Both the position numbers and the translations under genes were made by a program. Under the pieces are notes generated by a model. It had not been told where the DNA came from. It saw only the letters and a list, made by a program, of their open reading frames with translations, and searched no databases. Below are positions 34,015-62,371 of a stretch of 64,000 bases of DNA, piece by piece. Positions within the stretch are counted from its first letter, which is position 1. Each line of letters begins with the position of its first letter. The DNA lies in NCBI GenBank assembly GCA_049718765.1, contig JBNARI010000002.1, positions 10,052-74,051 of the forward strand, read 5' to 3'. Source of the stretch: Bacillota bacterium (GTDB taxonomy: Bacteria > Bacillota > Sulfobacillia > DUMF01).

Positions 34015-35874
34015 CTAGAAGTAAAACCCGTCGGACGCGTTCTGCCTGACCTTCACCCGCAGACCCGACTGCTGCCCGGAAACTCCCTTGACCTCGAGTC
34101 TGCCCGCACCCGCCGGACCGTGCCTTGCCGCGCGCTTTCTGTCCCACTCGCACAGCTCCAGCCTCACCTTCAGAGGCGGAAGGGGCTCACCGTCCCTCAC
34201 CACCCGCACCACCGCACAAAACTTCGGCAGCTCCATCAACTCGGTGTACGGGTACCTCGCCTCCCTCTTCTCGGCCTCACGGTAGCCCTCCGCATACCAC
34301 GGGAAAATGAACGTCCCCTGCCTGGTGTAGCTCTTCTGCTTCTCCACCCTCTCATACTCACCCAGCTGCGCCGCAAGGTACTTCGCCTCTTCCGCAGTCC
34401 CAGGGTTCAAAATGATCTTGTTCCGCGTGTTCTCCACCATCACCTCCCGGAACGTCCGCTTCTCATCCAGCACCACCTGCGCCGTCGTCTGCAGAGCAAG
34501 CACAGCCGCACACCTGTACGACCGCCCAATCGCCAGCAGCCTCTCAAAGTCCGCGTTCACATACCGCGGAAACTCGTCCACGTACAAAACATGCGGCGTC
34601 CGCGTCCGCTCAGTCCCCTGCCTCCGGAACACAGCCTGCTGAAAGTGCAGAATGAAAAACTGCCCGAACGCGTCGCCCAGCCTCCCAAGAGGCCCCATCG
34701 CCGTGTTCACCACCAGCACGCCACCCTGCTCCAGGTGCCTGTCCAGGTCCACGTCGCTCTTCGCACACAGCACCCGCCTCAGCATCGAGTTCCCAGTCAG
34801 GTCCTCCAGCGTCAGGCGAAGGCCCATCAAGAACTGCCGCGACTTCTCGTTCTCCAAAACCTCCACCCTGAAGTAGTCAGCTACACCCTTCTTGCTCCGC
34901 TCCGCAGGACCCGCCTCCAGCCGCTTCATATACGCCTCAAGCTTCCGGTAGTCCCGCAAAGCGTCTATCAGGTCCTGCACCGTCACGTCGTCACCCTTCA
35001 CGTACTTCAAAAGCAGCACGATGTTTCTCGCCGCAAGCTCGTAGTTCGCACGGAAAAACGCCTCCTGGCGACCGAACAAATGCACCAGCACCGTCCTCAT
35101 GATCTCAGCCGCCGTCTCGGCGTCGCCCTCAAGCGGGTTGAAAGTGGCCGTCCCAGGCCACTCCGGATTGACAAACGTGCACGGTATCTCCAGATCCCTG
35201 CACATCTCGTACACGTCCTGCGCAAGATCCCCCTTCGGCTCCACAACAGTTACCCCAAGCCTGCAGCCGCGCTTCAGAGCCTGCAGGTCCTGCCATATCA
35301 TCGGCTTCAGCACCCTGCTCGTCTTCCCCGTCCCCGTCGTCCCCGTCACAAGCGTGTGCAGGTACCGGTCGTCCCTCTTTATCACCACCGGGCCGTTCGC
35401 ATACCCGATCACCACGTCCATTTCGTCCGTCCTCTGTCTCGCAGGCCCTCTGCCGGGCCGCAAGCCCAACAGAACCAGCAGGCCCACCGCGTACGGCGCA
35501 AGCAGCGCCCCCTGCCGCACAGCAGCCGCGTCCGAAACAGTCAGGTACGGCACCCGCCCCAGAGAAGCCATCCAGCGGACCGCCAAGCCCTCGAGTACCA
35601 CCGCACACAGCGACGCCACGCAAACGTACACAGCCCCTATCCCGGCCCACAGCGGCACGTCCCCCAGCTGCCCGCTCAGCACCACCAGCGCAGCGGACGC
35701 ACAGCACGACACGCACAGCAGGGCAACACTGCGCACCCACACGCCCACAACCGCGCACGCCACGCACACTCCCAACACCACACGCAAAACTCGCCTCACA
35801 GCGCCGCCTCCTTCCTGTCCGCAGCCCGGTGCAAGATCACCTGACCGGACTGAAGCCTGTAAAGACCGCTCCAA
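34015..35874 (-). CDS. Type IV coupling protein (VirD4/TraG/TraD family)
   Basis: N-terminal TM helices. Walker A 'VTGTTGTGKTSRVL', Walker B 'VLYVDEFPRY'. 619 aa. Confidence 0.8.
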   Translation of the reverse strand: MERSLQASVRSGDLAPGCGQEGGGAVRRVLRVVLGVCVACAVVGVWVRSVALLCVSCCASAALVVLSGQLGDVPLWAGIGAVYVCVASLCAVVLEGLAVRWMASLGRVPYLTVSDAAAVRQGALLAPYAVGLLVLLGLRPGRGPARQRTDEMDVVIGYANGPVVIKRDDRYLHTLVTGTTGTGKTSRVLKPMIWQDLQALKRGCRLGVTVVEPKGDLAQDVYEMCRDLEIPCTFVNPEWPGTATFNPLEGDAETAAEIMRTVLVHLFGRQEAFFRANYELAARNIVLLLKYVKGDDVTVQDLIDALRDYRKLEAYMKRLEAGPAERSKKGVADYFRVEVLENEKSRQFLMGLRLTLEDLTGNSMLRRVLCAKSDVDLDRHLEQGGVLVVNTAMGPLGRLGDAFGQFFILHFQQAVFRRQGTERTRTPHVLYVDEFPRYVNADFERLLAIGRSYRCAAVLALQTTAQVVLDEKRTFREVMVENTRNKIILNPGTAEEAKYLAAQLGEYERVEKQKSYTRQGTFIFPWYAEGYREAEKREARYPYTELMELPKFCAVVRVVRDGEPLPPLKVRLELCEWDRKRAARHGPAGAGRLEVKGVSGQQSGLRVKVRQNASDGFYF

Positions 35875-44184: not shown

Positions 44185-44190
44185 TCTTCT

Positions 44191-44762: not shown

Positions 44763-44859
44763 TCACAACACCCTCCCCTTGAACCCTCCAACTCTTCTGC
44801 GTCCTCTACTGGTTGAGAAGACTGAGTGGGGGCAGAACCGCCCCCCCCTCGATCAGCCT

Positions 44860-45249
44860 TCAGATCGCCTCGAGCAGGTTGCGGACTGCTTGCTTCAGCT
44901 CGGCGCGCAGCTGCTCCGCGGACACAGGGTCGCCAAGCTCCCCGACACCTCTCGCGGTGTCTGCACCGCCCCGCAGGAACCCACATGCCATCCTTGTGAA
45001 ACGGCGGTTCGCCATTTTGAGCACTTCGATGTTGCCGAGGTAGTACATCCCGCCCTCGGCATACACCCTGTGGCCCAGGTGCCGCAGGCTCTTCGCGAGC
45101 CTCTGCACCTTGATCCTATTCTCAAGAGAGTCTGTCCCAAAGATTTCCTGTGCTATCTGGGCCGTCGGCACCCCTGCAGGATGAGCCTTCTCCAGTATGT
45201 CAAGCATCCGCTCGGCATCCGTGCCCCTTCCGTCCTTCAGCCGTTTCAC
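44860..45249 (-). CDS. Hypothetical protein
   Basis: 129-aa ORF with globular composition. No family recognised. Confidence 0.3.
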   Translation of the reverse strand: MKRLKDGRGTDAERMLDILEKAHPAGVPTAQIAQEIFGTDSLENRIKVQRLAKSLRHLGHRVYAEGGMYYLGNIEVLKMANRRFTRMACGFLRGGADTARGVGELGDPVSAEQLRAELKQAVRNLLEAI

Positions 45250-46766: not shown

Positions 46767-46878
46767 ACGCGGACAGTTGCTGCAGTAGCCATGCCGCCGC
46801 AGGGGTTCAAAAACGTCATCAGCCCGCAGCGCGACCGCGGGCTGAACCTGCCTGCTTCAACCTGCAAAACTTATCTGC

Positions 46879-49112: not shown

Positions 49113-50327
49113 CTACAGACCCCTCCTCTTCCACCGGAAAAGCCTTGAGATCAGCCCGCCCCTGTGAGACGCGATCACGTCCCCGAGAGCAGGTGTCACC
49201 CTTGCAGCAAGCCCAAGCACGGCATTCGTGAACGGGCAGCTCCTTTCGAGCACCGGGAGCCGGCCCTGGTTCTGCAGTGCCGGCACGCTCTCGTCCTCAG
49301 GTATCTGCGCGACCAGCTCCCACGGCAGCCACTCCTTAACCTGCGCCACCGAGAACGGCGGCTTCCTTGGGACCCGGTTCAGCACCACCCGGATCTTCCT
49401 CTCGTCGGTGTGCGTGAGGGATATGTCCCTGGGCGCCCTGTACACGTCCCTCAGCGTCTGCACGTCCATCGTCGCCACCACAAGCACCGAGGTGGCGGAC
49501 TCCAGCCCCACCACTGTGGCGTCCTCGAAGTCGGGGCCGCAGTCCACCACCACCACGTCGGCGTTGCGTCTCATGTACTCGAGCACATCGGTCGCAAGCG
49601 CCTCGTCCAGCAAATCTTTGTTTATGGCCCTCCTTATGCCCGGCACCACGTGGATCGTGCCTTTCTTGCCCACGGGGTATGCTGCGACCCTGGACTCGAA
49701 GCGATCGTCCTTGGCCTCCGCCCAGGCCTCCACGGAAAGCGGAGTGCTGATCTGCAGCAGTGCGGTCACCCTGGCGTGGGGGTCGAAGTCCACAACCACC
49801 ACACGCAGATCGGGCATGTACTTTGCGTACACTGCAGCCAGGTTGCACACGAGAGTCGTCTTGCCCACGCCGCCCTTGGGGCTGTAAACGGTTATCACCT
49901 GCTGGCGCACCACCCTGCTGCGCGGCCCCGGGGGCTCCTCCTCACCGGGACCACTCCATGGCGGCTGTAGCTGCTCGTCGCCGCCAAGTTCATCGAGCAC
50001 TTCTTCCAGTTCCAGAGCGTCGAGGGGCCTGCGCACTACGCCCTTGAGCCCCTTCTTGGCGGCCCTCCTGTAAAGGTCAATCCCCGCGTCCCCTGATGCA
50101 AGCAGCACGGGCACCCCACCCAGCACGTGCACGGCCTCAGCACCCATGTCAAGGCTGTCCACCAGTACAGCGTCCGCACCACCGACCCTGCCCCTCAGCT
50201 GCGCGGGGCTGTCCGCCACCGCCAGGACACGCACACCCCGGCCCAGACTCTCTACTTCCCTGACCAGGTCCTCTGCGCCAATAACGCACAACCTCAACAC
50301 CTTACCGCCCTCCTCCCGGCTGGACAA
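49113..50327 (-). CDS. cpaE: CpaE/TadZ-like protein (receiver-like N-domain plus ParA/MinD ATPase)
   Basis: Deviant Walker A 'VYSPKGGVGKTTLVCNLA' and 'VVVVDCGPDF'. Confidence 0.75.
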   Translation of the reverse strand: MSSREEGGKVLRLCVIGAEDLVREVESLGRGVRVLAVADSPAQLRGRVGGADAVLVDSLDMGAEAVHVLGGVPVLLASGDAGIDLYRRAAKKGLKGVVRRPLDALELEEVLDELGGDEQLQPPWSGPGEEEPPGPRSRVVRQQVITVYSPKGGVGKTTLVCNLAAVYAKYMPDLRVVVVDFDPHARVTALLQISTPLSVEAWAEAKDDRFESRVAAYPVGKKGTIHVVPGIRRAINKDLLDEALATDVLEYMRRNADVVVVDCGPDFEDATVVGLESATSVLVVATMDVQTLRDVYRAPRDISLTHTDERKIRVVLNRVPRKPPFSVAQVKEWLPWELVAQIPEDESVPALQNQGRLPVLERSCPFTNAVLGLAARVTPALGDVIASHRGGLISRLFRWKRRGL

Positions 50328-51030
50328 AGCCGTACCTCTCCAGCCACTGCCGCCCGGTCACGCCCTGCGTCTGAGCCGCAGACTCGTCCGTGTTCAGCGG
50401 GTTCAGCGCGAACCGGATGGAACCCGACGTCAGCGCGAACGCTATGTCCTCTATCTGCTGCGGCGTCAGGGCAACTACCAGTACGCTCCCTTTGCCCAAC
50501 CTGAGCTCAGTGTTCTGCTTCACGTCCAGCACCAGCACGTTCCTCGCGACCACCTTCCCTACACCCATGCCGGTGCCCCCCGCTTCCACCTTCACGGATG
50601 CCACGATGTCCACCCTGTCACCTGGCTTGATGTCACCACCCACCCCGGTCTCGGCGTCGTACGACAGCGAAAACGCCCTCAGATCCGGCCTACCCAGAGC
50701 AGTCAACCTCGCAGTCATGACCGACTTGCCAGGCGTCACATCCGCCACACGGGCCATGCGGACCACTTCGCCTGCATACACCCTGTCCCGCAGGTACTGA
50801 CCCACGATGTCTTCCACCTTCCGCACCGCGTCCTGCGGCACGGAAATCACCGGGACTTCCTGCACCTTAACATCGTCTCTCGTCACCAGCTGGTACGCTT
50901 CGAGGTCCCGCACAGCAACCACCACCGGCTCCGTCTCGTTCACGCGCTTCAAAAACTGCACCACCAGCAGCGCAGCACACAGCGCCATCACGACCGCCAG
51001 GATAAGAAAAACCGTGCCCTGCTTCTTCAA
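50302..51030 (-). CDS. cpaB: CpaB/RcpC-like Flp pilus assembly protein
   Basis: N-terminal TM anchor, then SAF-like and beta domains ('VVAVRDLEAYQLVTRDDV', 'VLVLDV'). Confidence 0.65.
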   Translation of the reverse strand: MKKQGTVFLILAVVMALCAALLVVQFLKRVNETEPVVVAVRDLEAYQLVTRDDVKVQEVPVISVPQDAVRKVEDIVGQYLRDRVYAGEVVRMARVADVTPGKSVMTARLTALGRPDLRAFSLSYDAETGVGGDIKPGDRVDIVASVKVEAGGTGMGVGKVVARNVLVLDVKQNTELRLGKGSVLVVALTPQQIEDIAFALTSGSIRFALNPLNTDESAAQTQGVTGRQWLERYGFVQPGGGR

Positions 51031-51092
51031 CTATCTCGTCCCCCCCTCACGCAGATCAGAAAATCATCAGGGGCGGCACTCAATCGCCCCCC

Positions 51093-51506
51093 TCAGTCAA
51101 GATCCCCCGGTCCGTTGTGCACCTGTACACTGTAGACCTTCCAGCCGTCCTCAAACTTCATCAGGTCGAGCACGCACACGTGCTGACCGATGCACTTTGA
51201 CGGTGTTGCCTGCTCCTCCCAGGTCACCGCGCACACCACCGACCCCCTGGTGCCGTCCCTGTTGGTGCGCAGCATTTTCAGCCTGAGTTCATGCACCTCC
51301 CACTTCACGCCCCTGAGCACCGGCAGCTTCCTGCTGAGGTCGGCATGCGCGTCTCCAGATGTCAGGTTAAGCGCCCTCTCAAAGTCACCGGAATAGTACG
51401 CCTGCACGTACTCCCTTGCCACGTCGAGCATTTCGGTGGCCGCCTTCCCGGGACTGCACCCGGAAACCAGCACGCAAGCAACCACCGCCAGGCATATGAG
51501 CCGCAC
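51093..51506 (-). CDS. Lipoprotein (SnoaL/NTF2-like, DUF4878-like)
   Basis: Lipobox 'LVSGCS' after a GTG start at 51506. Paralogous to the next gene. Confidence 0.45.
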   Translation of the reverse strand: MRLICLAVVACVLVSGCSPGKAATEMLDVAREYVQAYYSGDFERALNLTSGDAHADLSRKLPVLRGVKWEVHELRLKMLRTNRDGTRGSVVCAVTWEEQATPSKCIGQHVCVLDLMKFEDGWKVYSVQVHNGPGDLD

Positions 51507-51552
51507 CTGCCTCTCACCCCTCTTTCCCCCTCCCTCTGAAAGGTCGACTGCT

Positions 51553-51984
51553 TCAGGACTTCTCGACCCTCCGCGCCGTGGCAAACGAATATATCTTCCA
51601 CTGCCCGGCAACCCTGGCGAACTTCAGTACAGCCACCATGTCCACAGTCGTGGTCCCCGCCCCGGGCACCGTCTGCTCAAACACGTAAGCTGCCACCACG
51701 TCCCCGCGTGTCCGGTCGCGGGAGACCCAGTCGCACTTCAGCTCCAGCCCGGAGACCTTATTCTGCACATTCATCGCCCTGAGAGCGGGCACCGCAGCCC
51801 TCATATCCGCAAGGGCCTGCCCCGTCAGAAAAGAGCACGCCGTGTCAAAGTCGCGGCTGTAGAAGGCGTTGAGGAACCGAGTCCCCAGATCCACCAGGTC
51901 CCGCTCGGTCGTGTAGCTCCTTGAGCACCCCGCAAGCGTCATTACGGTCATGAGGGCTAGAAGGAGCGCACCCTGCTTCCTCAT
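51553..51984 (-). CDS. Lipoprotein (SnoaL/NTF2-like, DUF4878-like)
   Basis: 'MRKQGALLLALMTVMTLAGCS' lipobox. 'FLNAFYSRDFDTACSFLTG' parallels 'YVQAYYSGDFERALNLTSG' in the paralogue. ATGA overlap with the upstream gene. Confidence 0.5.
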   Translation of the reverse strand: MRKQGALLLALMTVMTLAGCSRSYTTERDLVDLGTRFLNAFYSRDFDTACSFLTGQALADMRAAVPALRAMNVQNKVSGLELKCDWVSRDRTRGDVVAAYVFEQTVPGAGTTTVDMVAVLKFARVAGQWKIYSFATARRVEKS

Positions 51985-53279
51985 GTGCCGGCTGCGCGCC
52001 GCAGGCCGGCCCGGAGCCGGTCGACAAGTGCCCCTACGGCCTCCCGCCGCACCGACTCCCACGGGGACTCGAGCTCCGGCACCAAGCAGTCGGGTCTGCG
52101 GCCCAGGACTTCGGTTACCTCTTGCCTCGCCCGGTTTAACACCAAGAACTCGCACCCTACCTTCTTCACCTCCCTCTTCACGACCGCCAGGTGGGCGGGG
52201 TCCGGGTCCACTACGAGCACCCTGAGCCACGCCGCTGCCAGCAGTGCTGCAGCCCACTCATCTTCCGCCACACACGGCATGTCGCACACAAACACGTCGG
52301 CATTCACCTTCGGAGAATTCAGAAACCGTTCCAGCACCTGCCACTCGACCTCCAGCCGGCCGAGCGCCGGGTCCCTGCTGAACACGGTGACCCCTTCAGC
52401 CTGCAGCCCGAAGGGCCCGTCGGTGACCACCAGAGCAGGAGAAAGCACCTTCCCGAGCGTGTCCTCCCCTTCGGGCAGCCGCAGGTACGTGTGCAGCGCG
52501 TGCTTGTGCGTGTCCAAATCCACCAGCGCCACCCTGACCCCGCGCGCCGCAAGCGCGGCCGACAGGAAAGCGCTCACCAGCGTCTTCCCGCATGGAGCCG
52601 GGCTCCACACGGCCACAACGGGCATCCGGAGCCTCATCGGCCCAGCGGAACCGGCCTGCGGCCCGGTGGGCGAGACCTGTTGTCCGAGCGGGAAAGGATT
52701 GCCGGCGGCCTCTGTTTTACGCTTCGCTGCGGCACTTACGGCAGGCGCCTCCCGTGGCCCAGCCGGGGTCGCCGGTTCCACAGCCCCACGGACCCCTCCC
52801 TTCCCGGCCAGCGCACCGCCCAGCCGGTGGAACAGCTCCAGAAAGTCCCGCTTCGGCCTGGGCTTCGCAGCCGCGCAGCACACCTTCAGCGCCTCCGCGA
52901 ACGTCCTTGGCCTCTCGATGCAAGCATCTATGTCCTCCACCCGCACTGCGCGGTCCTCTCCGTAAAACAGGATGTCGTATACCCCCATAGCGATGAGGTC
53001 CTTGATAAGCTGCGACCCCCGGGGCATGTCGCCGGCAAGGAACACCACCCGCAGCCCGGCAAGCCTTGCCTCGAACACCACGTCGGCCATGTCCTTCGTG
53101 CCCTCGAGGTACGCGGATAAAAGCAGCACATCCGCCTCGGTGCGCTTCACTGCGTCGAGGACGGCCTCCCGGTAAAACACCCTTGCGCAGACCTCCACAC
53201 CGCCCCCCTCTGCCATCTCCTCGTAGTACCTGTCCAGCTCATCAACACCCGTGGCAAGGATCAGCCTACTGCGCGGCAC
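51981..53279 (-). CDS. CpaE/ParA-like protein with degenerate Walker A (possibly non-catalytic)
   Basis: Receiver-like N-domain. The P-loop position reads 'VAVWSPAPCGKTLVSAF' and lacks the KGG of deviant Walker A. 'VALVDLD' is conserved. Confidence 0.5.
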   Translation of the reverse strand: MPRSRLILATGVDELDRYYEEMAEGGGVEVCARVFYREAVLDAVKRTEADVLLLSAYLEGTKDMADVVFEARLAGLRVVFLAGDMPRGSQLIKDLIAMGVYDILFYGEDRAVRVEDIDACIERPRTFAEALKVCCAAAKPRPKRDFLELFHRLGGALAGKGGVRGAVEPATPAGPREAPAVSAAAKRKTEAAGNPFPLGQQVSPTGPQAGSAGPMRLRMPVVAVWSPAPCGKTLVSAFLSAALAARGVRVALVDLDTHKHALHTYLRLPEGEDTLGKVLSPALVVTDGPFGLQAEGVTVFSRDPALGRLEVEWQVLERFLNSPKVNADVFVCDMPCVAEDEWAAALLAAAWLRVLVVDPDPAHLAVVKREVKKVGCEFLVLNRARQEVTEVLGRRPDCLVPELESPWESVRREAVGALVDRLRAGLRRAAGT

Positions 53280-53661
53280 GTATCATCACCGCCACCAGCA
53301 CCGGCGCAAGCCTCACCAGCGTGAAGCCCACCGCCGTGCACACGGCGATGCCCACCGCGTTCCTCTTCACCGCCTCGTTGTGCCCCAGTGCGCCCGCCGC
53401 AAACATCCCGGCTGCCACTATCAGGAGCACCACTGCCACGGGTACCGACAGCACCTGCAGGAACCGGATGACCTTCAGGCACACCGCAATGGTCCCCGAA
53501 GTCAGGCTGTCCAGGTTTATGGTCTTCCCGCTGGCGCCAAGCCTGTCCAGTATCTCTTCCGCCGTGGGAACGTCCGTCCCGGCGAAGCACACCCCCGACC
53601 TGCCCCCAACAGCAAGTGCCAGCAGCACACCCGCCAACCTCACAGCACACCTCACCTCCAT
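53266..53661 (-). CDS. Small membrane protein, possibly TrbC/VirB2-like pilin
   Basis: Signal peptide plus two hydrophobic helices ('VAVVLLIVAAGMFAAGA', 'VGIAVCTAVGFTLVRLAPVLVAVMI'). Architecture only. Confidence 0.35.
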   Translation of the reverse strand: MEVRCAVRLAGVLLALAVGGRSGVCFAGTDVPTAEEILDRLGASGKTINLDSLTSGTIAVCLKVIRFLQVLSVPVAVVLLIVAAGMFAAGALGHNEAVKRNAVGIAVCTAVGFTLVRLAPVLVAVMIRAAQ

Positions 53662-54731
53662 CCTCCAGTGGTGCGCGGGTCAATGCACACCCCGTTCTTC
53701 CGCACCTCGAAGTGCAGGTGCGGCCCGGTTGAAACTCCTGTCGAACCTACCAGCGCTATGACCTGACCCTCTGCGACACGCACCCCCTCAGCCACAAGGA
53801 CTGCCGAGCAGTGGCCGTACAGCGTCTCAAGCCCGCCCCCGTGGTCGATGATCACGCACAGCCCGTAGCCGCCGTACTGCCCCGCAAAGCGAACCACCCC
53901 GCCGCGCAGCACCCGCACCGCAGCCCCCGGCGGTGCCCCGATGTCCACACCGGGGTGGAACTCCAGAGCGCCGGTGACGGGATGCACGCGCCACCCGTAG
54001 CCCGACGTCACCTCGCCCTCCACGGGCCAGTCCCCACTGTAGCTCAGCCGCTCCAGCGGCCCCACCAGCAGCACCGAAAGATTGGGCCTGCCGGACTCTA
54101 TGCTCCTGCCCAGCTCAGCTATCAGCTGGGCCGAAGCGTCGTCCGGCTCCTGCCCCGTCAGCGCGCGCACAGCGGCCTTCAGGCGCGAGTAGTCGGGCGT
54201 CCACTGGCAGCCCTCTCTCACGGGCACCACGTGCGTCCCCGACACTGCACACGAGTACCTGTAGGAGTACACCCCGTCGTACGCACGGGCGCACAACAGG
54301 ACTGTCACAGAAACATGGCGCTTGTTGCCGGTTTCCGGATCCTCCACCCAGACCCCCACGGAGCCGTACTCAAACTCAGGCCTGAGCAGGAATGCAGCAC
54401 TTTCCAGGTCTGTTTTCCCGCGGCTGCCGGTGAGCACGTCCAGCGCCAGCAGCAGCCCCGCAGTCACCTGGTGGGCCGCTTCTGCGCCGTCCGCAGACCT
54501 CACAGGCACCGCAAGCCGCGAAGCCAGCTCGCGGTACTCGCTCCACTGCGGCTCCGCCTGCGCCCCCACCGGCAGCCCCACGAACACCGACGCCAGACAC
54601 AGCACCGCTACGACCAGGCACAAAATAAGCAGGCCGCTCACTGCCAGCAGCCTGCGCCCGGAGGACAGGAAGCACAGCACCGCTTCCCTAGCGACCGCTA
54701 CCGCCGGATTTCTTCGCCGCACCGGTTTCAC
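53652..54731 (-). CDS. M23 family peptidase (cell-wall hydrolase of the transfer apparatus)
   Basis: 'HPGVDIGAPPGAAVRV' (HxxxD) and 'GSTGVSTGPHLHFEVRKNG' (HxH) LytM-type motifs. N-terminal TM anchor. Confidence 0.75.
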   Translation of the reverse strand: MKPVRRRNPAVAVAREAVLCFLSSGRRLLAVSGLLILCLVVAVLCLASVFVGLPVGAQAEPQWSEYRELASRLAVPVRSADGAEAAHQVTAGLLLALDVLTGSRGKTDLESAAFLLRPEFEYGSVGVWVEDPETGNKRHVSVTVLLCARAYDGVYSYRYSCAVSGTHVVPVREGCQWTPDYSRLKAAVRALTGQEPDDASAQLIAELGRSIESGRPNLSVLLVGPLERLSYSGDWPVEGEVTSGYGWRVHPVTGALEFHPGVDIGAPPGAAVRVLRGGVVRFAGQYGGYGLCVIIDHGGGLETLYGHCSAVLVAEGVRVAEGQVIALVGSTGVSTGPHLHFEVRKNGVCIDPRTTGGWR

Positions 54732-56601
54732 CGGCCTTTCCGTACATAACCTGCCGCCACGGTCTCGCCTCGTCCGCTGTCAACCGGCGCCTTGCAGGTG
54801 GGCGGACCATCCGCGCGCCAGCGTCATACAGCGCCTGCCCTGCCGCTCCGATTTCCCGGCCCACCGGGCCCCCTGCCAGTCCTACCAGGTGACCGCCGAT
54901 CCTCATCCCAATTCCGGTCCCGGCGAGCAGCACACCTCCGGCTGCACCCGCCACCCTGGCGGCCACAGCCGCGACACTCTGCCGCGTCTCACTCTTTTCT
55001 CCTCTTCTCTCTTCCGGTTCGGGCTCCGGCTCACCGCCGCCTGAGGCCGTGTTTGGGCTGCGCTCAGGTGCCCCGAAACCGAAGTCGAGGCAGTACGGCC
55101 CTCCGCCTTCGCCGGTTTCGAATACAGCTCCTATACCAGCCGAACCCCTTACTGCATTCCACGTTATCCCTACGGGCCCCTCATACGTTTCAGGCTCACC
55201 CTCGGGCCACATGTCCGGTTCGTCCACCACCCGAAATGGGAGCCCTCTTCCGCTGGGACGGTACGCCCCGGGCTCGTCAACCGCAAGCACTGGCATGTCG
55301 CCCTGGATGCGTGGTCCGGAAACCCGGGCTGCAGTCCCGGTGGCTCCCGCCGGCGCGGCACTTGCCGCCTGAACAGCCATCAGGGGTACCGCTGCACCGC
55401 CCCCGCCTCCATCGTTGGGGCCCTTGAACGGCGACAGCCCGGCAATCGCTACACCCGCAGCTCCGGAGCGCGCAAGCCCGCCGACCGCGCCGGCCATTAT
55501 GCTCCCCAGCGCAACAAGCGATGCCATGCCGCCCACGGCCCCTCCGGCCATGCCTTCCTCGTGCATCCCCAGCCAGTCCAAAAAGCCTATGAGCATTCTC
55601 CGCAGGAACGAAGACACCGGGATCACAAGCGTGAACCCCAGGAGTTTTGCCCAGGCCGTCCCCATGATCCCGCTTTCGCACACCGGGACACCCACACCAA
55701 ATGCCAGAACCCGTACCAGCCCGGTGGCCGAAGCAGCGCTCTCGCGCAGGCCAAGCATCGTGAGGAAAAATCCGTAGGTCAGCGCATGCGAAGCGGTCAT
55801 CATGCCGTTTGTCAGCAGCTCCGACAGCAGCAACATTGCCGTCCGGCGTGTGCGCCTGGACACCCACGACCAGGCCACAACTGGCGCCAGCACCAGCAGC
55901 ACGCCGAGCACGAACTTCCTGATGAGGTACAGCACGTTCATGTAGATCTTCAGACCCACGTCTGCAATCCTCACCAGGCTGTCAAGCAGCGCGCTGCCGG
56001 TCGCCCGCACTCCCCACTCGTGCGTGATGGGCACCGACATCTCCACCAGCCTCGCCTTCCCGAAGCTCACGACGGCCAGGTTGCAGTCCAGCACCAGCCT
56101 GAGAATGACCGGTGTCGCAAAAGCAAAGAGTGCCGCAAAGCCGGTGTCCCACAGCACCTCCTGCACTGTTGCGCGCTTCGAAGGGCTCAGGATCCAACCG
56201 TACGACTTCAGCAGCACCACCGTCTGGATCACAATCACAGATGTCGCAAACGCCAGCACGGCCTGGTACCAGGGCTTGACCAGCCCGTACCACTCCGCAG
56301 CTGTGAAGGCATCTGCCATCGGCGAGCCGTCGCCCGTGTTGAACACAAGCTCTTCCACCGGCTTCATCCCGGCCAGATCCGCAACAAGGTCCAGGGCCGA
56401 CGCGATGGCATTGAACGGGGTTGCCAGGATCTGGTCCAGTATGGAGTACGACCCCGTCAGTGCAGGCAATCCCCCCGGCCCTGTGGTACTCGCACCGTTC
56501 TGCGTCGGCAGACTCAGCTCGTCCAGCGTCTGCGCACGGGCAGGCCCCGGCACCGCAGCGACAAGGAGCATCACCACCAGAACACACACCCACCTGCGCA
56601 A
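54688..56601 (-). CDS. VirB6/TrbL-like polytopic T4SS membrane protein with Gly-rich tail
   Basis: 637 aa, signal peptide, about 6-8 TM helices in the central region, and a long low-complexity Gly/Ala tail. Its position between the hydrolase and VirB4 matches Gram-positive T4SS modules. Confidence 0.5.
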   Translation of the reverse strand: MRRWVCVLVVMLLVAAVPGPARAQTLDELSLPTQNGASTTGPGGLPALTGSYSILDQILATPFNAIASALDLVADLAGMKPVEELVFNTGDGSPMADAFTAAEWYGLVKPWYQAVLAFATSVIVIQTVVLLKSYGWILSPSKRATVQEVLWDTGFAALFAFATPVILRLVLDCNLAVVSFGKARLVEMSVPITHEWGVRATGSALLDSLVRIADVGLKIYMNVLYLIRKFVLGVLLVLAPVVAWSWVSRRTRRTAMLLLSELLTNGMMTASHALTYGFFLTMLGLRESAASATGLVRVLAFGVGVPVCESGIMGTAWAKLLGFTLVIPVSSFLRRMLIGFLDWLGMHEEGMAGGAVGGMASLVALGSIMAGAVGGLARSGAAGVAIAGLSPFKGPNDGGGGGAAVPLMAVQAASAAPAGATGTAARVSGPRIQGDMPVLAVDEPGAYRPSGRGLPFRVVDEPDMWPEGEPETYEGPVGITWNAVRGSAGIGAVFETGEGGGPYCLDFGFGAPERSPNTASGGGEPEPEPEERRGEKSETRQSVAAVAARVAGAAGGVLLAGTGIGMRIGGHLVGLAGGPVGREIGAAGQALYDAGARMVRPPARRRLTADEARPWRQVMYGKAGETGAAKKSGGSGR

Positions 56602-56629
56602 AGCCCATCACCCGCCTTTCCTTCTTCCT

Positions 56630-57946
56630 TCACGACAGGCCCTTAGGCAGCCAGCCCTCCTTGACGACTTCCTTCGCCTTTACGAGCAGGTCCTCCATGG
56701 TGATCCCGTCCACACCCGTCCTGGCTCCCCTCCGCACGGCCCTCTCCGCCGCACCCTTGCAGATGCCTACTATGACGGCAGGCGAGCAGCCGTCGGTGAT
56801 CCGTGCAAGAAAGTCCAGGTCGATCTCGCCCAGAACGGGCCTCTCCGCGAGCAGCTTCGAAAAAAGAGCTTTGCGCCCCTCGAAGTCCGGCAGACCCACC
56901 TGCACGTGCCTGTCGAACCGCCCCGGTCTCAGAAGCGCTTCGTCCAGCACGTCTATCCTGTTGGTCGCACCGATCACGAACACGTCGCCCCTTGCCGAAA
57001 CGCCGTCAAGCTCCACCAGCAGCTGGTTCAGCAGCACATCGCTCGCCCGGTTCATGTGCGCCCCGTCGCGTCGCCTGCCTATGGCGTCGAGCTCGTCTAT
57101 GAACACTATGGCAGGCTTCCCACACCTGCGGGCTGCATGCCTTGCCAGGGCAAACACCTGGCTCAGCTTCTTCTCCGACGCGCCCACCCACTTCTCCAGC
57201 ACCACACTCGGCCTCACTTCAATCAGCGGGCAGCCGAAGTACTCCGCTGTCGCCCTCGCAAGCGACGTTTTGCCTGTCCCAGGTGGGCCGTAAAGCAGGA
57301 CGCCACGCGCAGGGTCGATCTTGTAGAGTTTCGCCCGCTCCGGGTCCTTAAGCCAGACTTCCAGTGCCCCAAGCATTTCCTCCACTGCGCGCTCGACCCC
57401 CACTAGGCCGTCAAACGCTTGCGGGTTCGGCCCCTTCACGACCACCTCTATACCGTCCACCGAATCACCTCCCGTTCCGATGGGACTGGCCCACGCCTTC
57501 TGGGGCAGCTGCCTTCTCACAGCCTGCAGCCTCCTCACCTCACCAAACAGACGCATGTTCACGAAGTACCCGAGCACCAGCCCCAGCAGCTGCACCAGCT
57601 CTCGAGCGTTCCTGGAGGCCCCAGGCACGAAGAACCCGGCGAGAATCGCGTGCCCGGCTGCCCCTTTCGTCACGAAGCAGCACAGCACAGTGGCTACAAT
57701 GGTCGCATAAGATACCTCGTGAGGCAGCAGCCCCAGCCCCAGAAACAGGCTCCTCCACGTGTACGGCAGGGGACCGCCCCGGTACCAGCCGTAGCACGCA
57801 TACCCAACCGCCACCACCGAAGCCGCAAACAGTAGAGTGCAGAGCGCTCCCACAAGGCTCATCCGCACCCCTGTCCTCGCACCGTTCATCCGCATCCCTC
57901 CTCTTCTGGAGCCGCCACCCTGTGCAAACACAGTCCCGCCCTGCAC
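56630..57946 (-). CDS. Membrane-anchored AAA+ ATPase (classic FtsH/Cdc48 clade)
   Basis: N-terminal TM helices. Walker A 'LLYGPPGTGKTSLA', Walker B 'IVFIDELDAIG', SRH 'ATNRIDVLDEALLRPGRFDRHVQVGLPD'. Confidence 0.8.
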   Translation of the reverse strand: MQGGTVFAQGGGSRRGGMRMNGARTGVRMSLVGALCTLLFAASVVAVGYACYGWYRGGPLPYTWRSLFLGLGLLPHEVSYATIVATVLCCFVTKGAAGHAILAGFFVPGASRNARELVQLLGLVLGYFVNMRLFGEVRRLQAVRRQLPQKAWASPIGTGGDSVDGIEVVVKGPNPQAFDGLVGVERAVEEMLGALEVWLKDPERAKLYKIDPARGVLLYGPPGTGKTSLARATAEYFGCPLIEVRPSVVLEKWVGASEKKLSQVFALARHAARRCGKPAIVFIDELDAIGRRRDGAHMNRASDVLLNQLLVELDGVSARGDVFVIGATNRIDVLDEALLRPGRFDRHVQVGLPDFEGRKALFSKLLAERPVLGEIDLDFLARITDGCSPAVIVGICKGAAERAVRRGARTGVDGITMEDLLVKAKEVVKEGWLPKGLS

Positions 57947-58025
57947 AGGCCCGCCCCATGGCGGACCACAGCAGGGCTCTTACTGATGTTCTTGCAAACG
58001 GCCTAGGGAAGCCGGGCCTGCCAGC

Positions 58026-59909
58026 CTACTCTTCGTGCTCGCCTTCCCGCTTCTGTGTTAGGCCAAGCAGCTCCCACTCGTTCTCAGACACTGTCACACG
58101 CACCGCGGCGTACTGGCTCCTGTCGCTCCCGACCCGCAGAAGCCCCTGGCCGGTCCCGCACGTCCGCAGGAAGTCCCTCTGCCCCTCGGCCAGCTTGAAG
58201 AACTCGCACACGGCCTCAAACTCAGTCGCGTTCTGCTTCATCAGGAACACGCTGTCAAGGTTGCCCATCGTCGCCTGGCCCTTGGGGTTCTGGAACTCGC
58301 AGAAGTGCTGCGTGGCCACCACCAGAGAGCAGTTCCTCTTCCTGGCGCGCCGCGCCATCAGCTCCAGAAAGCTCGCCGTGTCCTCGTACTTCTCGAACAG
58401 CCAGCCCTCGTCCACCACAACCCTCAGCTTCTGCTTCGGCCCCTTCAGGGGGTTCTTCTTTACAAACGCCTCCCAGACCCACTCAAGGCAGACGTGCATG
58501 GCAAACGGCCTCGCTATGCTTTCTTCCAGCCTGGAAACGTCAAACGCCACGAGCAGCGCGTCCCCCAGGCGTATGCTTGACTGGCCGTCGAAGAACCCCA
58601 GGCTCCCTCCCCTGAGGCAGGGCTTCAGCACCGTCCTCAGCCTCTCGGCCCTTTCACCGTACTTGCCCAGCCTCTCGTACAGGGAGCTGAACGTGGGCAT
58701 CTCCTTCTTCACAGGCCCCACGTACACTCTGCCGCCTTCAATCCTGTCCCTCTTCTCGTACAGCGACTCCGGGGCCTGGGTTATCCCCCTCGCCCCGTAC
58801 TCCTCCCTGACCGCTTCCTCTAGAATGGCGCCCTCTTCCGGCGTGAGCCGCTCACCAGCGCTCTGCAGCAGCACCGCGACCAGCGACTTTACGTCGCTCA
58901 CCTTGTCCAGCACCGGCACCCTGTAGCTGCCGTCTTCCCCCTGCTCCGGCTCGAGGTCGAACGGGTTCACGTACACCTCGTCCGCATCCGGGGTCAGCCT
59001 CACGTAGACCCCGCCCATCGCCCGTACGAGGTCGCCGTACTCCCCTTCCGGGTCCAGGAAGACAGTCCTAACCCCAAGCACCGCAGACCTGGCTGCAAGC
59101 ACCTTCAGGAACGTCGTCTTGCCCGCACCGGAAGTCGCTACCACCCCCAGGTGCGGGTTCTGCAGCAGCGGCGGCCCTATGAACGAGTCGTAGAACACGG
59201 GCGCACCCGTGACGAGGTTCATCCCCAGCAGCACGCCCTCCGGGTGGACCACGTCCGCACCAGACCAGGGGAACAGCGCCGTCGCCGCGTACAGGTCGAA
59301 GTTCCGGTACACGTCCATCATCCGGTTGTCGCCGAGGGGCATCACAGTCCTCAGGGCATCAGCCTGCCTCAGAAAGGCCTGTCTCACGTGCACCGCACGC
59401 CCGCCCAGCTTCTCCTCCAGCACCTTGCACTGCCTGTCCAGCTCTTCAAGGCTCTTTGCGGCCACCGAAAAGTGCACCGCAACCGCAAACATGCGGTTCT
59501 GGTTCGTCTGTACCTGCTCCCGCAGCGCCCAGGCGTCCTGCTCCACCCTCCTGAGTACCGACAGGTTCCTGTAGTCACCGCGCTTCTCGTCCGCAATGAC
59601 CTGCGCCTGGATGTTGATGATCTGCTGCGTCAGGGAATCGATCACCTCCTTGTCCGGTATCGGGTACACGTACACCGACACATCCACGTCGCCTGCAGTG
59701 TAAAGGTCGTCCAGCCACCCTACGAACACCTGGCTCGGCACTTCTGACACGAAGTACTGCCTCACGTACCGCCCCGAGCCGATCTGCACGTGCGAGCGCT
59801 CCACGTATATCCCGTCAGGGGCAACCAGGTCGTGCAGCGTCGTCACACCGCCCTCAAAGCTCGGACCCCTGACCCGGAGCTGCTCACCTGCGCCCTTCTT
59901 TCGCCACAC
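58026..59909 (-). CDS. VirB4-family conjugation ATPase (Gram-positive TcpF/PrgJ-like)
   Basis: Walker A 'VVATSGAGKTTFLKVL', Walker B 'RVVVDEGWLF'. 627 aa. Confidence 0.85.
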   Translation of the reverse strand: MWRKKGAGEQLRVRGPSFEGGVTTLHDLVAPDGIYVERSHVQIGSGRYVRQYFVSEVPSQVFVGWLDDLYTAGDVDVSVYVYPIPDKEVIDSLTQQIINIQAQVIADEKRGDYRNLSVLRRVEQDAWALREQVQTNQNRMFAVAVHFSVAAKSLEELDRQCKVLEEKLGGRAVHVRQAFLRQADALRTVMPLGDNRMMDVYRNFDLYAATALFPWSGADVVHPEGVLLGMNLVTGAPVFYDSFIGPPLLQNPHLGVVATSGAGKTTFLKVLAARSAVLGVRTVFLDPEGEYGDLVRAMGGVYVRLTPDADEVYVNPFDLEPEQGEDGSYRVPVLDKVSDVKSLVAVLLQSAGERLTPEEGAILEEAVREEYGARGITQAPESLYEKRDRIEGGRVYVGPVKKEMPTFSSLYERLGKYGERAERLRTVLKPCLRGGSLGFFDGQSSIRLGDALLVAFDVSRLEESIARPFAMHVCLEWVWEAFVKKNPLKGPKQKLRVVVDEGWLFEKYEDTASFLELMARRARKRNCSLVVATQHFCEFQNPKGQATMGNLDSVFLMKQNATEFEAVCEFFKLAEGQRDFLRTCGTGQGLLRVGSDRSQYAAVRVTVSENEWELLGLTQKREGEHEE

Positions 59910-60642
59910 TGCCTGTCACCTCCGGCCTTCGGCCCGAGACGTACGGCTCAAAAAAGCCGTGGTCGACGGCGTCCCGCGCCCTCGCATACGCGCTGCGCTC
60001 CTTGTTCAGCACCGTGTACAGCAGCTCCACAACCTCGTCGGTCGTCAGCTTCCTCCACTTGAGCCACCTGGAAAGCTCTGAGCCGACCACCTCGGCCCTC
60101 CGCAGGAGCTCCTGCCTGGCAAGGCTGAACCTGTCTTCCCCCGGACCAGCGTCGTAGTGGATGACCACGTAGTTCTTCCGCACCAGCGGCGAGTACCGCG
60201 CCCACGCGGCCAAGTACTGGCTGAGCTCCCGCGCGTACCGCCTCAGCTCGGTCGGCAGCCCGGGCATCCGCTCTTCAATCCCCTGGATCTGTCTGCTGAG
60301 GTCAATCTGCCGGGTCTGCGTGTAAAACTGCACCGGGAACGTCAGCGACGCCACCAGAGTCCTGAATGACGCCTCGATGTTGTCCTGCTCTGTCTCGGAA
60401 AGCAGCGGGAAGTTCACTGTACCCACAACTTCCAGCACCAGCCTGTACCTGCCACCTGGCAGCACCACAATCCCGTCGCGTATGTCCTCGAAGCCGAGGA
60501 AGCGCTGGGCTGAGGCGCGCACCTCCAGCTGCGGTCCACTGTCCTCTGCTTGTTTGAGGTACCGCTTCCTGGCCCTTTGCAGAAAGAAAACTGCTGCAGC
60601 GCACACAGCCGCAGCGGGCACCAACGGCCAGAGTTGCGTCAA
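59884..60642 (-). CDS. Membrane-anchored protein paralogous to the VirB4 N-terminal domain
   Basis: 'FEDIRDGIVVLPGGRYRLVLEVVGTVNFPLLSETEQDNI...FPVQFY' parallels the VirB4 N-terminus 'VAPDGIYVERSHVQIGSGRYVRQYFVSEVPSQVFVGWLDDL...VSVYVYPI'. Confidence 0.35.
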   Translation of the reverse strand: MTQLWPLVPAAAVCAAAVFFLQRARKRYLKQAEDSGPQLEVRASAQRFLGFEDIRDGIVVLPGGRYRLVLEVVGTVNFPLLSETEQDNIEASFRTLVASLTFPVQFYTQTRQIDLSRQIQGIEERMPGLPTELRRYARELSQYLAAWARYSPLVRKNYVVIHYDAGPGEDRFSLARQELLRRAEVVGSELSRWLKWRKLTTDEVVELLYTVLNKERSAYARARDAVDHGFFEPYVSGRRPEVTGSVAKEGRR

Positions 60643-60965
60643 GGCACATCCCTCCGGTATGGGAACTCCCGTGGCCTAACGTAGAACAGCACCAGCGCCC
60701 AGAGGTAGCGGTCCAGCGGCATGTCCAGACCAGGCACCCTCACAAACGCCAGCGCTGCAGCAAAGGCCAGAATAGCACCTGCTCCCGCAAGACCCACCCC
60801 AGCCGAAAACGGCCTGAGGGCGCCATGCATCGCAAACGCACCCACAACCCCCGTGAGCACGTACATGGCCTGCCTGAGCGTTGCCTTCCCGCCGAATATC
60901 TTGGGCTCTTCGTCGAGCAGGATCGGAGTGCGGTACAGCCTCAACTCACTGCACCCCCTGCGCAA
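60639..60965 (-). CDS. PrgI/VirB3-like small membrane protein
   Basis: 108 aa. 'ATLRQAMYVLTGVVGAFAM' followed by a second TM helix. Immediately upstream of the VirB4 block. Confidence 0.4.
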   Translation of the reverse strand: MRRGCSELRLYRTPILLDEEPKIFGGKATLRQAMYVLTGVVGAFAMHGALRPFSAGVGLAGAGAILAFAAALAFVRVPGLDMPLDRYLWALVLFYVRPREFPYRRDVP

Positions 60966-61314
60966 AGCCCTTCAGCCAGCCGGCCAGCAGGTGGCTCGAG
61001 AACACGATCAGCGCGCCAATCGTAGTATGCACCAGCCCCTCCATAGCCTCGGCGCGCTTACGCGGGTCAGGCGATGCAGCGAGCTTGTACCCGTTTATGA
61101 TGTACCCCGCTATCACGATGATCGCTCCCAGCGAACGCAGCAGGTTCAGAATAGCAACTGCGAAGTTCACCAGGAAGTTAACGCTTGTCCCCGTGTTCAG
61201 CCCGTCGTCTCCGGTCGACGGATTGGGCACAGGTACACTCCCACTTGCCGCCTCAGCAACCGCCGGAAACAGTGCCACCAGCAGGGCCAAGATTGCACAG
61301 AACGCCCTCATCAT
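60946..61314 (-). CDS. TrbC/VirB2-like pilin-type protein
   Basis: Start reassigned to ATGATG at 61314 with RBS GGAGGGAGGGTG. Signal peptide 'MMRAFCAILALLVALFPAVAEA', then two hydrophobic helices ('LVNFAVAILNLL', 'GAIIVIAGYIINGY'). Confidence 0.5.
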   Translation of the reverse strand: MMRAFCAILALLVALFPAVAEAASGSVPVPNPSTGDDGLNTGTSVNFLVNFAVAILNLLRSLGAIIVIAGYIINGYKLAASPDPRKRAEAMEGLVHTTIGALIVFSSHLLAGWLKGFAQGVQ

Positions 61315-61420
61315 TTCACCCTCCCTCCACGAAAAGATGATCAGCTCACTCCATCCAGCAAGGCTCAGGAGAATCGGAACGCGCAAACTGTCTGCGGGAT
61401 TGTCCGGTGCGATACAAAAA

Positions 61421-62371
61421 CTATCCGTCTTCGAAAACCTGCCACGGGGGATCTGCAACAACGGGGCGCTTGCTCAAAAGCGACTCCCTCAGATTCTTGA
61501 TAATCGCGGACACTTCAGACATTCCATCGACGTTTGCGGAACCGTCATCCGGATAGCATTCCCCAGGACCGCAGGAGCAAGAGGACGCACACACAGAGCG
61601 GCCGCAGCCTTGGGAAAGCTTATCCGGTTCCGAGTTCCGAACGTTAACTGGTGGACATTCGGTTTTACAATTCTTTGTTGTAGTCTCTGTAATAATCTCT
61701 GATGTAATCTCTGATATTACACGTCCATTTTTTAACGCTCGAGCGTCCATTTTGGAACATCGAGCGTCCAAATTGGACGTTCGAACGTCCAAAATGGAAC
61801 ATCGAACGTCCACCGTGGACGTTCGGGCGTGAGCTGGGCTTTCTTTACCAGCAGCTTGATCCTGAAAACCTCCTGCTTCTGCTAGTTCGGGTACAAGCGA
61901 GTACCCGTCAAGGCAGTATCCCAGCTTAGTCAGTTCTTCCTGTATGCGCGCCAGGTTAACCCGGTACTGCATCGTCTTGCTCCACCGGTACCGCGGGTCA
62001 GTTCGCTCGCTCACGTAGCCCCTGTCGATGAGCTCCTGCAGGTGGCGCCTGATCGTCTGCCGCGACAGTCCCAGCATGGTCTCCTCATTTAGTTCCTCGG
62101 CCGATTTGTAAATCCAGCCGTGAGTCTCCTGCACCACACACTGGGGAACCTCTCCCCCGTGCTTGAGCTCTTCTTCCACCCGCTGCCTCTCTTCGCGGAT
62201 GTACGCATCGATGTCGGCAGCGCGCTCGGTCCAGTAAATTAGCTGGTTGAGCAACACCGCTTTTACAAAGTCGCCGGTAAGGGCGACAAGCTCTTCTTTG
62301 ATCACAGCCCTCTTAAGTTTGCGCGGATTGTCCACTGACTGCTGCACCCCCTGCCCCGTGCCCCGAGGCAC
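61421..62371 (-). CDS. RepA_N-family replication initiator (Firmicute plasmid/ICE type) with internal iterons
   Basis: N-terminal 'LLNQLIYWTERA...THGWIYKSAEELNEETMLGLSRQTIRRHLQELIDRGYVSER' fits the RepA_N pattern (NGW.Y.s.eeL.e.lg.S..Ti.r....L...GlI...R). The ORF reads through a 21-bp repeat array. The C-terminal extent is uncertain. Confidence 0.55.
   Translation of the reverse strand: MPRGTGQGVQQSVDNPRKLKRAVIKEELVALTGDFVKAVLLNQLIYWTERAADIDAYIREERQRVEEELKHGGEVPQCVVQETHGWIYKSAEELNEETMLGLSRQTIRRHLQELIDRGYVSERTDPRYRWSKTMQYRVNLARIQEELTKLGYCLDGYSLVPELAEAGGFQDQAAGKESPAHARTSTVDVRCSILDVRTSNLDARCSKMDARALKNGRVISEITSEIITETTTKNCKTECPPVNVRNSEPDKLSQGCGRSVCASSCSCGPGECYPDDGSANVDGMSEVSAIIKNLRESLLSKRPVVADPPWQVFEDG
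61719..61824. repeat. Iteron array: five tandem 21-bp units, each an internal palindrome (GAACGTCCA...TGGACGTTC)
   Basis: Units at 61741, 61762, 61783 and 61804 (GAGCGTCCATTTTGGAACATC / GAGCGTCCAAATTGGACGTTC / GAACGTCCAAAATGGAACATC / GAACGTCCACCGTGGACGTTC), plus a degenerate unit at 61719. Preceded by TAATCTCTGAT direct repeats (61693-61715) in a locally AT-rich patch. Confidence 0.7.

Follow-up and report, generated by a model that had tools for sequence, protein, structure and literature searches.

A membrane-tethered classical AAA ATPase encoded between VirB4 and the VirB6 position in a Gram-positive conjugation-type operon

Why does a conjugation-type operon encode a classical AAA ATPase between its VirB4 motor and the large membrane protein that follows? 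In type IV secretion systems (T4SSs), pilins must be extracted from the membrane, and both pilin extraction and the unfolding of substrates are usually ascribed to VirB4, VirD4 and VirB11; we know of no dedicated T4SS unfoldase. The gene in question lies on the minus strand of a 64,000-nt stretch of DNA, here called the window, from a Bacillota bacterium (Sulfobacillia, DUMF01; GenBank assembly GCA_049718765.1, contig JBNARI010000002.1, positions 10,052 to 74,051). An earlier note on the window had described the product as a membrane-anchored classical AAA protein with Walker A, Walker B and second region of homology (SRH) motifs, and Pfam, motif mapping and hydropathy bore this out. The note had also regarded such a protein as non-canonical for T4SSs, and this holds in the surveys and reviews consulted, which name only VirB4, VirD4/TcpA and VirB11-type ATPases (PMC4027160, PMC12857230, PMC12102498), as well as in the plasmid database PLSDB, where no ortholog was found and the best Gram-positive match, from Brevibacillus, lay among housekeeping genes. 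The reading that we tentatively favour, giving it not quite an even chance, is that the protein is an active ring ATPase and provides the mating-pair-formation machine with an accessory third motor in one Gram-positive lineage with combined T4SS and Tad genes, where it would pull on a T4SS client.

The open reading frame (ORF) in its longest form spans 56630..57946 on the minus strand and encodes 438 aa. The product is probably 419 aa long and encoded by 56630..57889 (minus strand), because a ribosome-binding site, GGAGG at 57901-57897, lies 7 nt 5′ of an ATG at 57889, and because the same ATG is used by NCBI for an identical protein, MGB9866567.1. The ORF that had been noted at 56630-57946 is real, and its start probably lies 57 nt inside that span. 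The features of the gene are as follows.

56630..57889, minus strand: T4SS-associated membrane-tethered AAA ATPase (ORF, ribosome-binding site, NCBI identity, PF00004 and AAA_lid_3)
57509..57889, minus strand: N-terminal membrane anchor, residues 1-127, with about three hydrophobic helices, then a basic low-confidence linker (hydropathy, AlphaFold2)
56894..57301, minus strand: AAA core, PF00004 (Pfam, motif mapping)
57266-57289, minus strand: Walker A, GPPGTGKT
57173-57193, minus strand: pore loop 1, KWVGASE
57092-57109, minus strand: Walker B, IVFIDE
56960-56971, minus strand: sensor 1, GATN (N310)
56912-56929, minus strand: arginine fingers of the SRH, RPGRFD (R321 and R324)
56687..56824, minus strand: AAA_lid_3 helical lid (Pfam), with the protein end 18 residues beyond it

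Pfam recognized one PF00004 module in the ORF, at residues 216-351 (E 8e-40; 136.8 bits against a cut-off of 21.2), and an AAA_lid_3 match at residues 375-420 (32.6 bits against a cut-off of 27.2). Hydropathy placed hydrophobic helices at about residues 10-32, 56-86 and 93-116 of the 419-aa form. The AlphaFold model showed N-terminal helices at 2-36, 56-86 and 93-127 with a pLDDT of 55-73, a basic, disordered linker at 117-143 with a pLDDT below 50, and an AAA core at 83-94. The protein did not match PF01434 (the M41 protease with its HEXXH motif) or PF00437 (the VirB11 fold), and neither Pfam and NCBIfam nor the sequence revealed an M41 protease, Cdc48-N, FtsH_ext, OB or coiled-coil domain or an HbYX tail. 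A check for a protease domain, which the earlier note had called for, thus found none, as the chain stops 18 residues past the lid and reads ...LPKGLS at its C-terminus.

To which class of AAA proteins does it belong? Partial matches to NCBIfam models, all below the family cut-offs, were obtained for PAN (206 bits), CDC48 (198 bits), FtsH (198 bits), CdvC (145 bits) and ARC (143 bits), and the EccA model matched weakly at 39 bits. The FtsH model TIGR01241 gave 197.6 bits against a cut-off of 600. The Cdc48 model TIGR01243 gave 198 bits against a cut-off of 803, with a single AAA module and no match to CDC48_N or CDC48_2, and the PAN models gave 206 bits against a cut-off of 500, with a membrane anchor at the N-terminus instead of a coiled coil/OB ring. 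CdvC/Vps4, the only meiotic-clade model tested, scored 145 bits and fell below PAN, Cdc48 and FtsH at about 200 bits. In a Foldseek comparison with the PDB, FtsH, Rpt/PAN, p97, AFG3L2 and Ycf2-FtsHi were about equally good matches (E about 1e-22); the top structural match was the full-length E. coli FtsH model (PDB 9a2p), and the TM score to PAN (3h4m) was 0.89. The best single domain in a sequence-profile search of the PDB was Cdc48 D2, at 239 bits.

A phylogeny against FtsH, PAN and Cdc48, which had been proposed as a check, was built by neighbour-joining from 79 AAA domains over 233 columns (20 family members, 14 FtsH chosen by their HEXXH motif, 8 PAN, 14 Cdc48 D1, 14 Cdc48 D2 and 9 others). 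The family was monophyletic in 100/100 bootstraps, apart from FtsH, PAN and Cdc48 D1/D2; no replicate joined it to the FtsH clade, and the tree supported none of FtsH, PAN and Cdc48 D1/D2 as its sister group. The mean AAA-domain identity was 64.5% within the family and 39-42% to each of the FtsH, PAN and Cdc48 reference groups. Because it forms a clade of its own and matches FtsH, PAN and p97 almost equally well in structure, the family is, as far as such comparisons go, a distinct subfamily within the classical clade and not FtsH, and a new subfamily of classical AAA proteins is thereby defined. It shares with FtsH an N-terminal membrane anchor and one classical AAA module with AAA_lid_3, whereas FtsH has an M41 zinc protease and a periplasmic domain, and the new family branches separately and has a long, variable linker. 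Two members from Fervidicola ferrireducens (P0208 and P0275; KXG73818.1/WP_066355594.1) are named 'ATP-dependent zinc metalloprotease FtsH' by NCBI/UniRef although they are protease-less, and other members are named '26S proteasome regulatory subunit' by JGI; both names are misannotations taken from the best AAA match.

Full-length homologs with an N-terminal anchor fell into two groups. The high-GC group (P0002, P0003, P0004, P0034, P0041 and the protein of locus L089) was 43-55% identical to the window protein, and the low-GC group comprised the two Fervidicola ferrireducens copies, a Thermovenabulum metagenome-assembled genome and several metagenome clusters, one of them with 64 member sequences. 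When the full-length family alignment was run as a profile against 1.84 billion representatives, multi-AAA proteins made up most of the matches, and P0001 and P0208 were the only recognizable members. A scan of genome contigs yielded mostly Cdc48, FtsH and PAN loci, the Thermovenabulum locus (L005) being the sole true relative, and a metagenome scan with a VirB4 alignment gave only four loci.

Walker A, Walker B, sensor 1 (N310) and the SRH arginines (R321 and R324) were invariant in 10 aligned members, which argues that the protein is catalytically competent; in the same alignment the pore-loop motif varied only at its first residue. Three further stretches were invariant and specific to the family: YFGC follows the P-loop helix, RDGxH[ML]NR follows Walker B, and GxSPAxI belongs to the lid. 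The window protein has W-V-G in pore loop 1, and 13/19 scored members have [W/Y]-[V/L]-G, with the glycine invariant. At the first of these positions the 19 members have W (8), Y (5), H (3), Q (3) or R (1), and the second is V or L. All 20 family members had at least one N-terminal hydrophobic helix. Within the high-GC group VirB4 was 77-85% identical and the AAA protein 43-55%, and the divergence of the latter lay mostly in the anchor and linker; anchors of different sub-branches could not be aligned, and the linker between membrane and ring varied from 40 to 86 residues across the family. The AAA gene of the Thermovenabulum locus (9767-10759) is short: its 330-aa product has a single N-terminal helix, and a separate gene ahead of it encodes a 159-aa membrane protein (9060-9539), so the membrane part may be supplied in trans. 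This 159-aa protein had no detectable sequence homology to the other AAA anchors. An origin of the anchor from an older small T4SS membrane protein was rejected, as it showed no homology to either the 159-aa protein or a 133-aa protein of plasmid pCLJ (see below).

How fixed is the position of the gene? The earlier note had placed it co-directionally between VirB4 and a VirB6-like gene, which is correct with the proviso that the VirB6 identity is positional, and had suggested a survey of related neighbourhoods. The operon extends beyond VirB4 in 12 loci, namely the window, L001-L005, L087, L089, L091, L094, L095 and L097. Across them VirB4 identity ranges from 50 to 85%, and their hosts are of high as well as low GC. 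In 12/12 the AAA gene lies between VirB4 and a large polytopic protein, followed by a hydrolase, and the sole break in this order is a RusA gene between VirB4 and AAA in L094 (4457-4843). The AAA coding region overlaps VirB4 by 20-26 nt in 4 loci and the next gene by 8-34 nt in 7 loci; in the window the corresponding gaps are 136 nt and 28 nt, and no convincing terminator was found in either. Judged by these comparisons, the gene is a single-origin addition to one lineage that has been strictly retained there. Two further loci from metagenomes, L085 and L086 (11575-20107), had been considered as relatives without AAA and were rejected, since the operon is broken after VirB4 and the VirB6-position and hydrolase genes are missing as well. 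After VirB4 these loci carry RusA, a HerA-like gene that an IS21 element has split, and a primase-like gene. The VirB4-side junction seems to accept insertions, because RusA is also found between VirB4 and AAA in L094.

Between about 61.5 kb and 43 kb, every gene in the window is on the minus strand. They are transcribed in the order T4SS pilin, PrgI/VirB3, 252-aa ORF, VirB4, AAA, 637-aa polytopic protein, M23 hydrolase and 131-aa membrane protein, and continue with a ParA-like ATPase, two small proteins, CpaB, CpaE-like, CpaF, TadB, a ParB-like insert and TadC. A single co-directional operon (43297-61461, minus strand) combines the T4SS genes with a complete set for a Tad (Flp) pilus. The annotated genes are given below, together with a coupling protein encoded further along.

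60946..61461, minus strand: T4SS pilin, VirB2-like (PF18895, 8e-09)
60639..60965, minus strand: PrgI/VirB3-like (PF12666, 1.9e-08)
59884..60642, minus strand: 252-aa ORF, of a TraC-like family in orthologs (PF26593 in orthologs)
58026..59909, minus strand: VirB4-type conjugation ATPase, C-terminal two thirds (NF045971, 1.2e-63; DUF87, AAA_10, P-loop_TraG)
54688..56601, minus strand: 637-aa polytopic membrane protein in the VirB6 position (position, predicted helices)
53652..54731, minus strand: M23 peptidoglycan hydrolase, VirB1 role (PF01551, 2e-32)
53266..53661, minus strand: 131-aa membrane protein (weak T4SS_pilin match, E 0.014)
51981..53279, minus strand: ParA/CbiA-like ATPase, 432 aa, first gene of the Tad half (PF01656, PF10609)
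50302-51030, minus strand: CpaB (RcpC/SAF)
49113-50327, minus strand: CpaE-like (CbiA/AAA_31)
47787-49112, minus strand: CpaF/TadA (T2SSE, 6e-65)
46879-48204, minus strand: TadB, in an ORF overlapping CpaF at its 5′ end (T2SSF)
45246-46766, minus strand: ParB-like gene, 506 aa, between TadB and TadC (ParB_N and HTH_ParB)
43297-44184, minus strand: TadC (T2SSF)
34015..35874, minus strand: VirD4-type coupling protein (TrwB_AAD_bind, TraG-D_C, T4SS-DNA_transf)

The 627-aa VirB4 ATPase matched only positions 185-729 of the 752-position CD1110-family model, and the 252-aa ORF overlaps its start; the latter is probably the separately encoded N-terminal part of a split VirB4. The 637-aa protein matched nothing in Pfam or NCBIfam, even at E ≤ 5, and had only five homologs in a search of 5.8 billion proteins, and its AlphaFold2 model was unusable (pLDDT 38). 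It was 24.7% identical over 384 aa (E 2.6e-15) to the protein in the same position of Clostridium sporogenes pNPD7, a plasmid of the pCLJ type, which is a weak homology. We use the VirB6 label, which should be read as positional, because of the VirB3-VirB4-X-hydrolase gene order, the many predicted helices and this weak homology. The 131-aa membrane protein is kept at the same place in all long loci and may be a second pilin-like subunit.

What might the AAA protein do there? Its conserved gene suggests an added protein-pulling motor that is absent from described T4SSs. In the mechanism that we propose, the protein would be tethered at the cytoplasmic face of the membrane by its poorly conserved anchor and flexible linker, and would be made along with VirB4 and the VirB6-position protein. 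A hexamer, by analogy with other classical-clade AAA proteins, would then grip a polypeptide with its central pore loops and pull; this is the most likely activity because all well-studied members of the clade act in this way. One candidate client is a pilin or channel subunit embedded in the membrane, which the protein would extract or remodel in the manner of FtsH or Msp1, thereby aiding the pilin extraction usually ascribed to VirB4. Alternatively, the client could be a transferred protein such as a relaxase, unfolded ahead of entry into the channel. Hexamer formation, threading, the client and any effect on transfer are what we infer from such parallels. T4SS substrates need at least partial unfolding according to Trokter and Waksman (2018), as cited in PMC12857230. 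Possible but doubtful is a bolder form of this proposal, in which this would be the first T4SS with a dedicated classical-clade AAA unfoldase or dislocase in its inner-membrane complex and hence a fourth kind of T4SS motor, either pulling the VirB2-like pilin from the membrane onto the VirB6 platform or unfolding the relaxase or other substrates. The unfoldase or assembly chaperone that the earlier note had offered as one option is the best remaining reading, with the function itself put forward only by analogy.

Several known systems offer parallels. Msp1/ATAD1 and Bcs1, which extract or move proteins at membranes, likewise combine a transmembrane anchor with a single AAA ring and no protease. 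In contrast to the window protein, they are eukaryotic organelle proteins. Msp1 belongs to the meiotic clade, whose CdvC/Vps4 model scored lower here (145 versus about 200 bits). The Ycf2-FtsHi chloroplast import motor (match 8xku_E) has protease-dead FtsH-like subunits in the membrane beside a protein channel, but it is an importer, a hetero-oligomer and of a plastid lineage without relation to T4SSs. ClpV of type VI and EccA of type VII secretion are also AAA+ proteins added to a secretion machine whose proteins they remodel; however, ClpV is of the Hsp100 type and EccA of the CbbX type, both are soluble and neither is linked to T4SSs. VirB4 is encoded in the same operon as the AAA protein, and both presumably act at the cytoplasmic face of the channel. 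The AAA protein may fill a VirB11-like accessory role that is missing in Gram-positive systems. It differs from these T4SS motors in class, as VirB4 and VirD4 are FtsK/HerA-like, VirB11 belongs to PF00437, and none is a classical AAA protein with SRH arginine fingers and AAA_lid_3 (PMC12857230).

A number of observations weigh against a T4SS-pulling motor. The 'aromatic' site of the pore loop is H, Q or R in 7/19 members, which is unusual for a general unfoldase, and no N-domain for substrate binding is recognizable. Conservation of the anchor is lost between branches, and the long linker contrasts with the tight membrane geometry of FtsH and Msp1. The position of the gene is compatible alike with a pilin or subunit and with a transferred protein as the client, and with a role in the T4SS or in the Tad half, and cannot tell these apart. 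Finally, no AAA gene was found within 12-16 kb on either side of VirB4 in pGspE55-1, pNPD7 and pCLJ. These plasmids carry the nearest annotated VirB4 relatives (35-40% identity overall), found in Geobacillus subterraneus pGspE55-1 (40%), C. sporogenes pNPD7 and C. botulinum pCLJ/pCLK (about 36%).

Like the window, pCLJ/pCLK and pGspE55-1 encode a pilin-like protein, PrgI, TraC, VirB4, a large polytopic protein and a cell-wall hydrolase, and their order goes on with CpaB, CpaE, CpaF, TadB, TadC, Flp, prepilin peptidase and ParM; unlike the window, they have no AAA gene. The junction between VirB4 and the polytopic protein holds a 133-aa membrane protein in pCLJ and nothing in pGspE55-1. Plasmids pCLJ and pBotCDC-A3 conjugate in a contact-dependent and DNase-resistant manner, and pCLK was reported to be mobilized (PMC2884020, PMC5814558). 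Elements of the pCLJ type transfer at low frequency (PMC5814558). Because these T4SS–Tad relatives still conjugate without it, the AAA protein is, on this comparative evidence, an accessory of one lineage and not needed for the basic transfer mechanism, which again counts against the proposal. It had been foreseen that homologous elements might lack the gene with no effect on transfer. This is borne out in part by pCLJ/pCLK and pGspE55-1, which are without it, and by the conjugation of pCLJ; within the lineage the gene is always kept. The same absences dispose of the alternative that the protein is a conserved known component that had gone unrecognized, as it is no hidden universal part of these systems. 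The idea that thermophiles need an unfoldase for hyperstable substrates was also weakened, because pGspE55-1 is a thermophile plasmid without the gene. A preprint models a pilus-like complex of pCLJ VirB2 and VirB6 (10.64898/2025.12.18.695078). In the literature, we found no paper that joins FtsH-like or AAA proteins with conjugation and type IV secretion, and none that describes the T4SS–Tad class as such.

Which other explanations fit the same observations? The one that survives best, although we consider it unlikely, is envelope quality control. Here a protease-less FtsH-like dislocase would clear misinserted or surplus membrane proteins when about 20 membrane-protein genes are switched on, and would protect the donor without taking part in transfer. 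The FtsH-like architecture of a membrane anchor joined to a classical AAA module agrees with this, as does the accessory nature of a gene whose relatives without it still transfer, and the variable anchor and pore loop would suit a loose range of clients. However, proteins extracted without a protease need some other fate, and the overlaps with VirB4 and the VirB6-position gene, together with a single position in 12 loci, suggest a stoichiometric partner.

Slightly less likely still is a regulator or exclusion factor that gates the channel by remodelling or removing part of the T4SS, be it as a switch between pilus growth and DNA transfer, in disassembly after mating or as a block to entry against cells with the same element. 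Recycling of complexes is a common task of AAA proteins, with ClpV in type VI secretion and NSF for SNAREs as examples. Moreover, the T4SS half lacks VirB11, the ATPase that usually does the gating; no PF00437 protein was found there, and the only one, CpaF, lies in the Tad half. Against this, relatives of the pCLJ type gate without an AAA gene, exclusion proteins are usually small surface proteins, and the sequence gave no sign of exclusion.

A role in pilin or platform assembly for the Tad half instead of the T4SS appears improbable. The T4SS and Tad genes do form one co-directional operon in every long locus, but the AAA gene always lies inside the T4SS core, 4-6 genes from the first Tad gene, and the outgroups that carry Tad genes lack it. 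No Tad system is known with a classical AAA protein (PMC6668835). Least tenable, and in our estimate very improbable given the fixed gene order, the overlaps with neighbouring reading frames and the lack of variation in the active site, is a passenger gene without a role in transfer (a defence ATPase or a selfish insertion), for which weak IetA and TRIP13 matches in PADLOC and the ability of RusA cargo to occupy the same junction can be cited, but against which the gene keeps its position across deep divergence with its catalytic motifs invariant, and the IetA score of 108 bits amounts to generic AAA similarity next to about 200 bits for PAN, Cdc48 and FtsH. The unrelated insertion that the earlier note had allowed for is rejected on the strict synteny in 12/12 loci. 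A defence-system or IetAS reading was rejected, as the similarity to IetA (the best match) and TRIP13 was only generic; PADLOC found no defence family in the four neighbouring proteins scanned, and no partner protease (IetS) was found nearby.

The surroundings of the operon bear on where the gene resides. The first ~17 kb of the window hold metabolic genes (IclR, M24 peptidase, BenE, DmpG/DmpF-like, MFS and MeaB) at 53-58% GC, and positions 17000-64000 have 62-69% GC. The window also encodes a TadE/G-like protein, an actin-like ParM relative and a Rep/DnaD-like gene. The transfer and plasmid-type genes, with the low-GC metabolic genes at the left end, suggest that the region is an integrated conjugative element of foreign origin. 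A tRNA scan of the window found no tRNA gene, and neither an integrase nor a relaxase was identified there. The element, or the DNA next to it, encodes three SLH-domain proteins and one fibronectin-III protein of 956 aa (14951-16876, 25149-28019, 29463-30683 and 31602-32948, minus strand); they may be cell-surface or adhesion cargo, and the SLH proteins indicate a host that presumably bears an S-layer. Within the Tad half, the ParB-like gene and a 129-aa ORF are inserted between TadB and TadC (44860-46766), which are adjacent in the related locus L089. The operons of L001 and L002 include a gene for an EAL-domain protein, a c-di-GMP phosphodiesterase (15574-16332 and 8594-9259, respectively), between the ParA-like and small lipoprotein-like genes; the window has no EAL gene.

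If the AAA protein is indeed a motor of the mating-pair-formation machine, it would offer a tractable handle on which motor does the work of pilin extraction or unfolding in conjugation. A lineage in which a separate AAA protein has become fixed between VirB4 and VirB6 is a natural experiment, and the client would show which step merited an extra motor. The family also links the elements of uncultured thermophiles to the poorly characterized conjugation region of botulinum-toxin plasmids.

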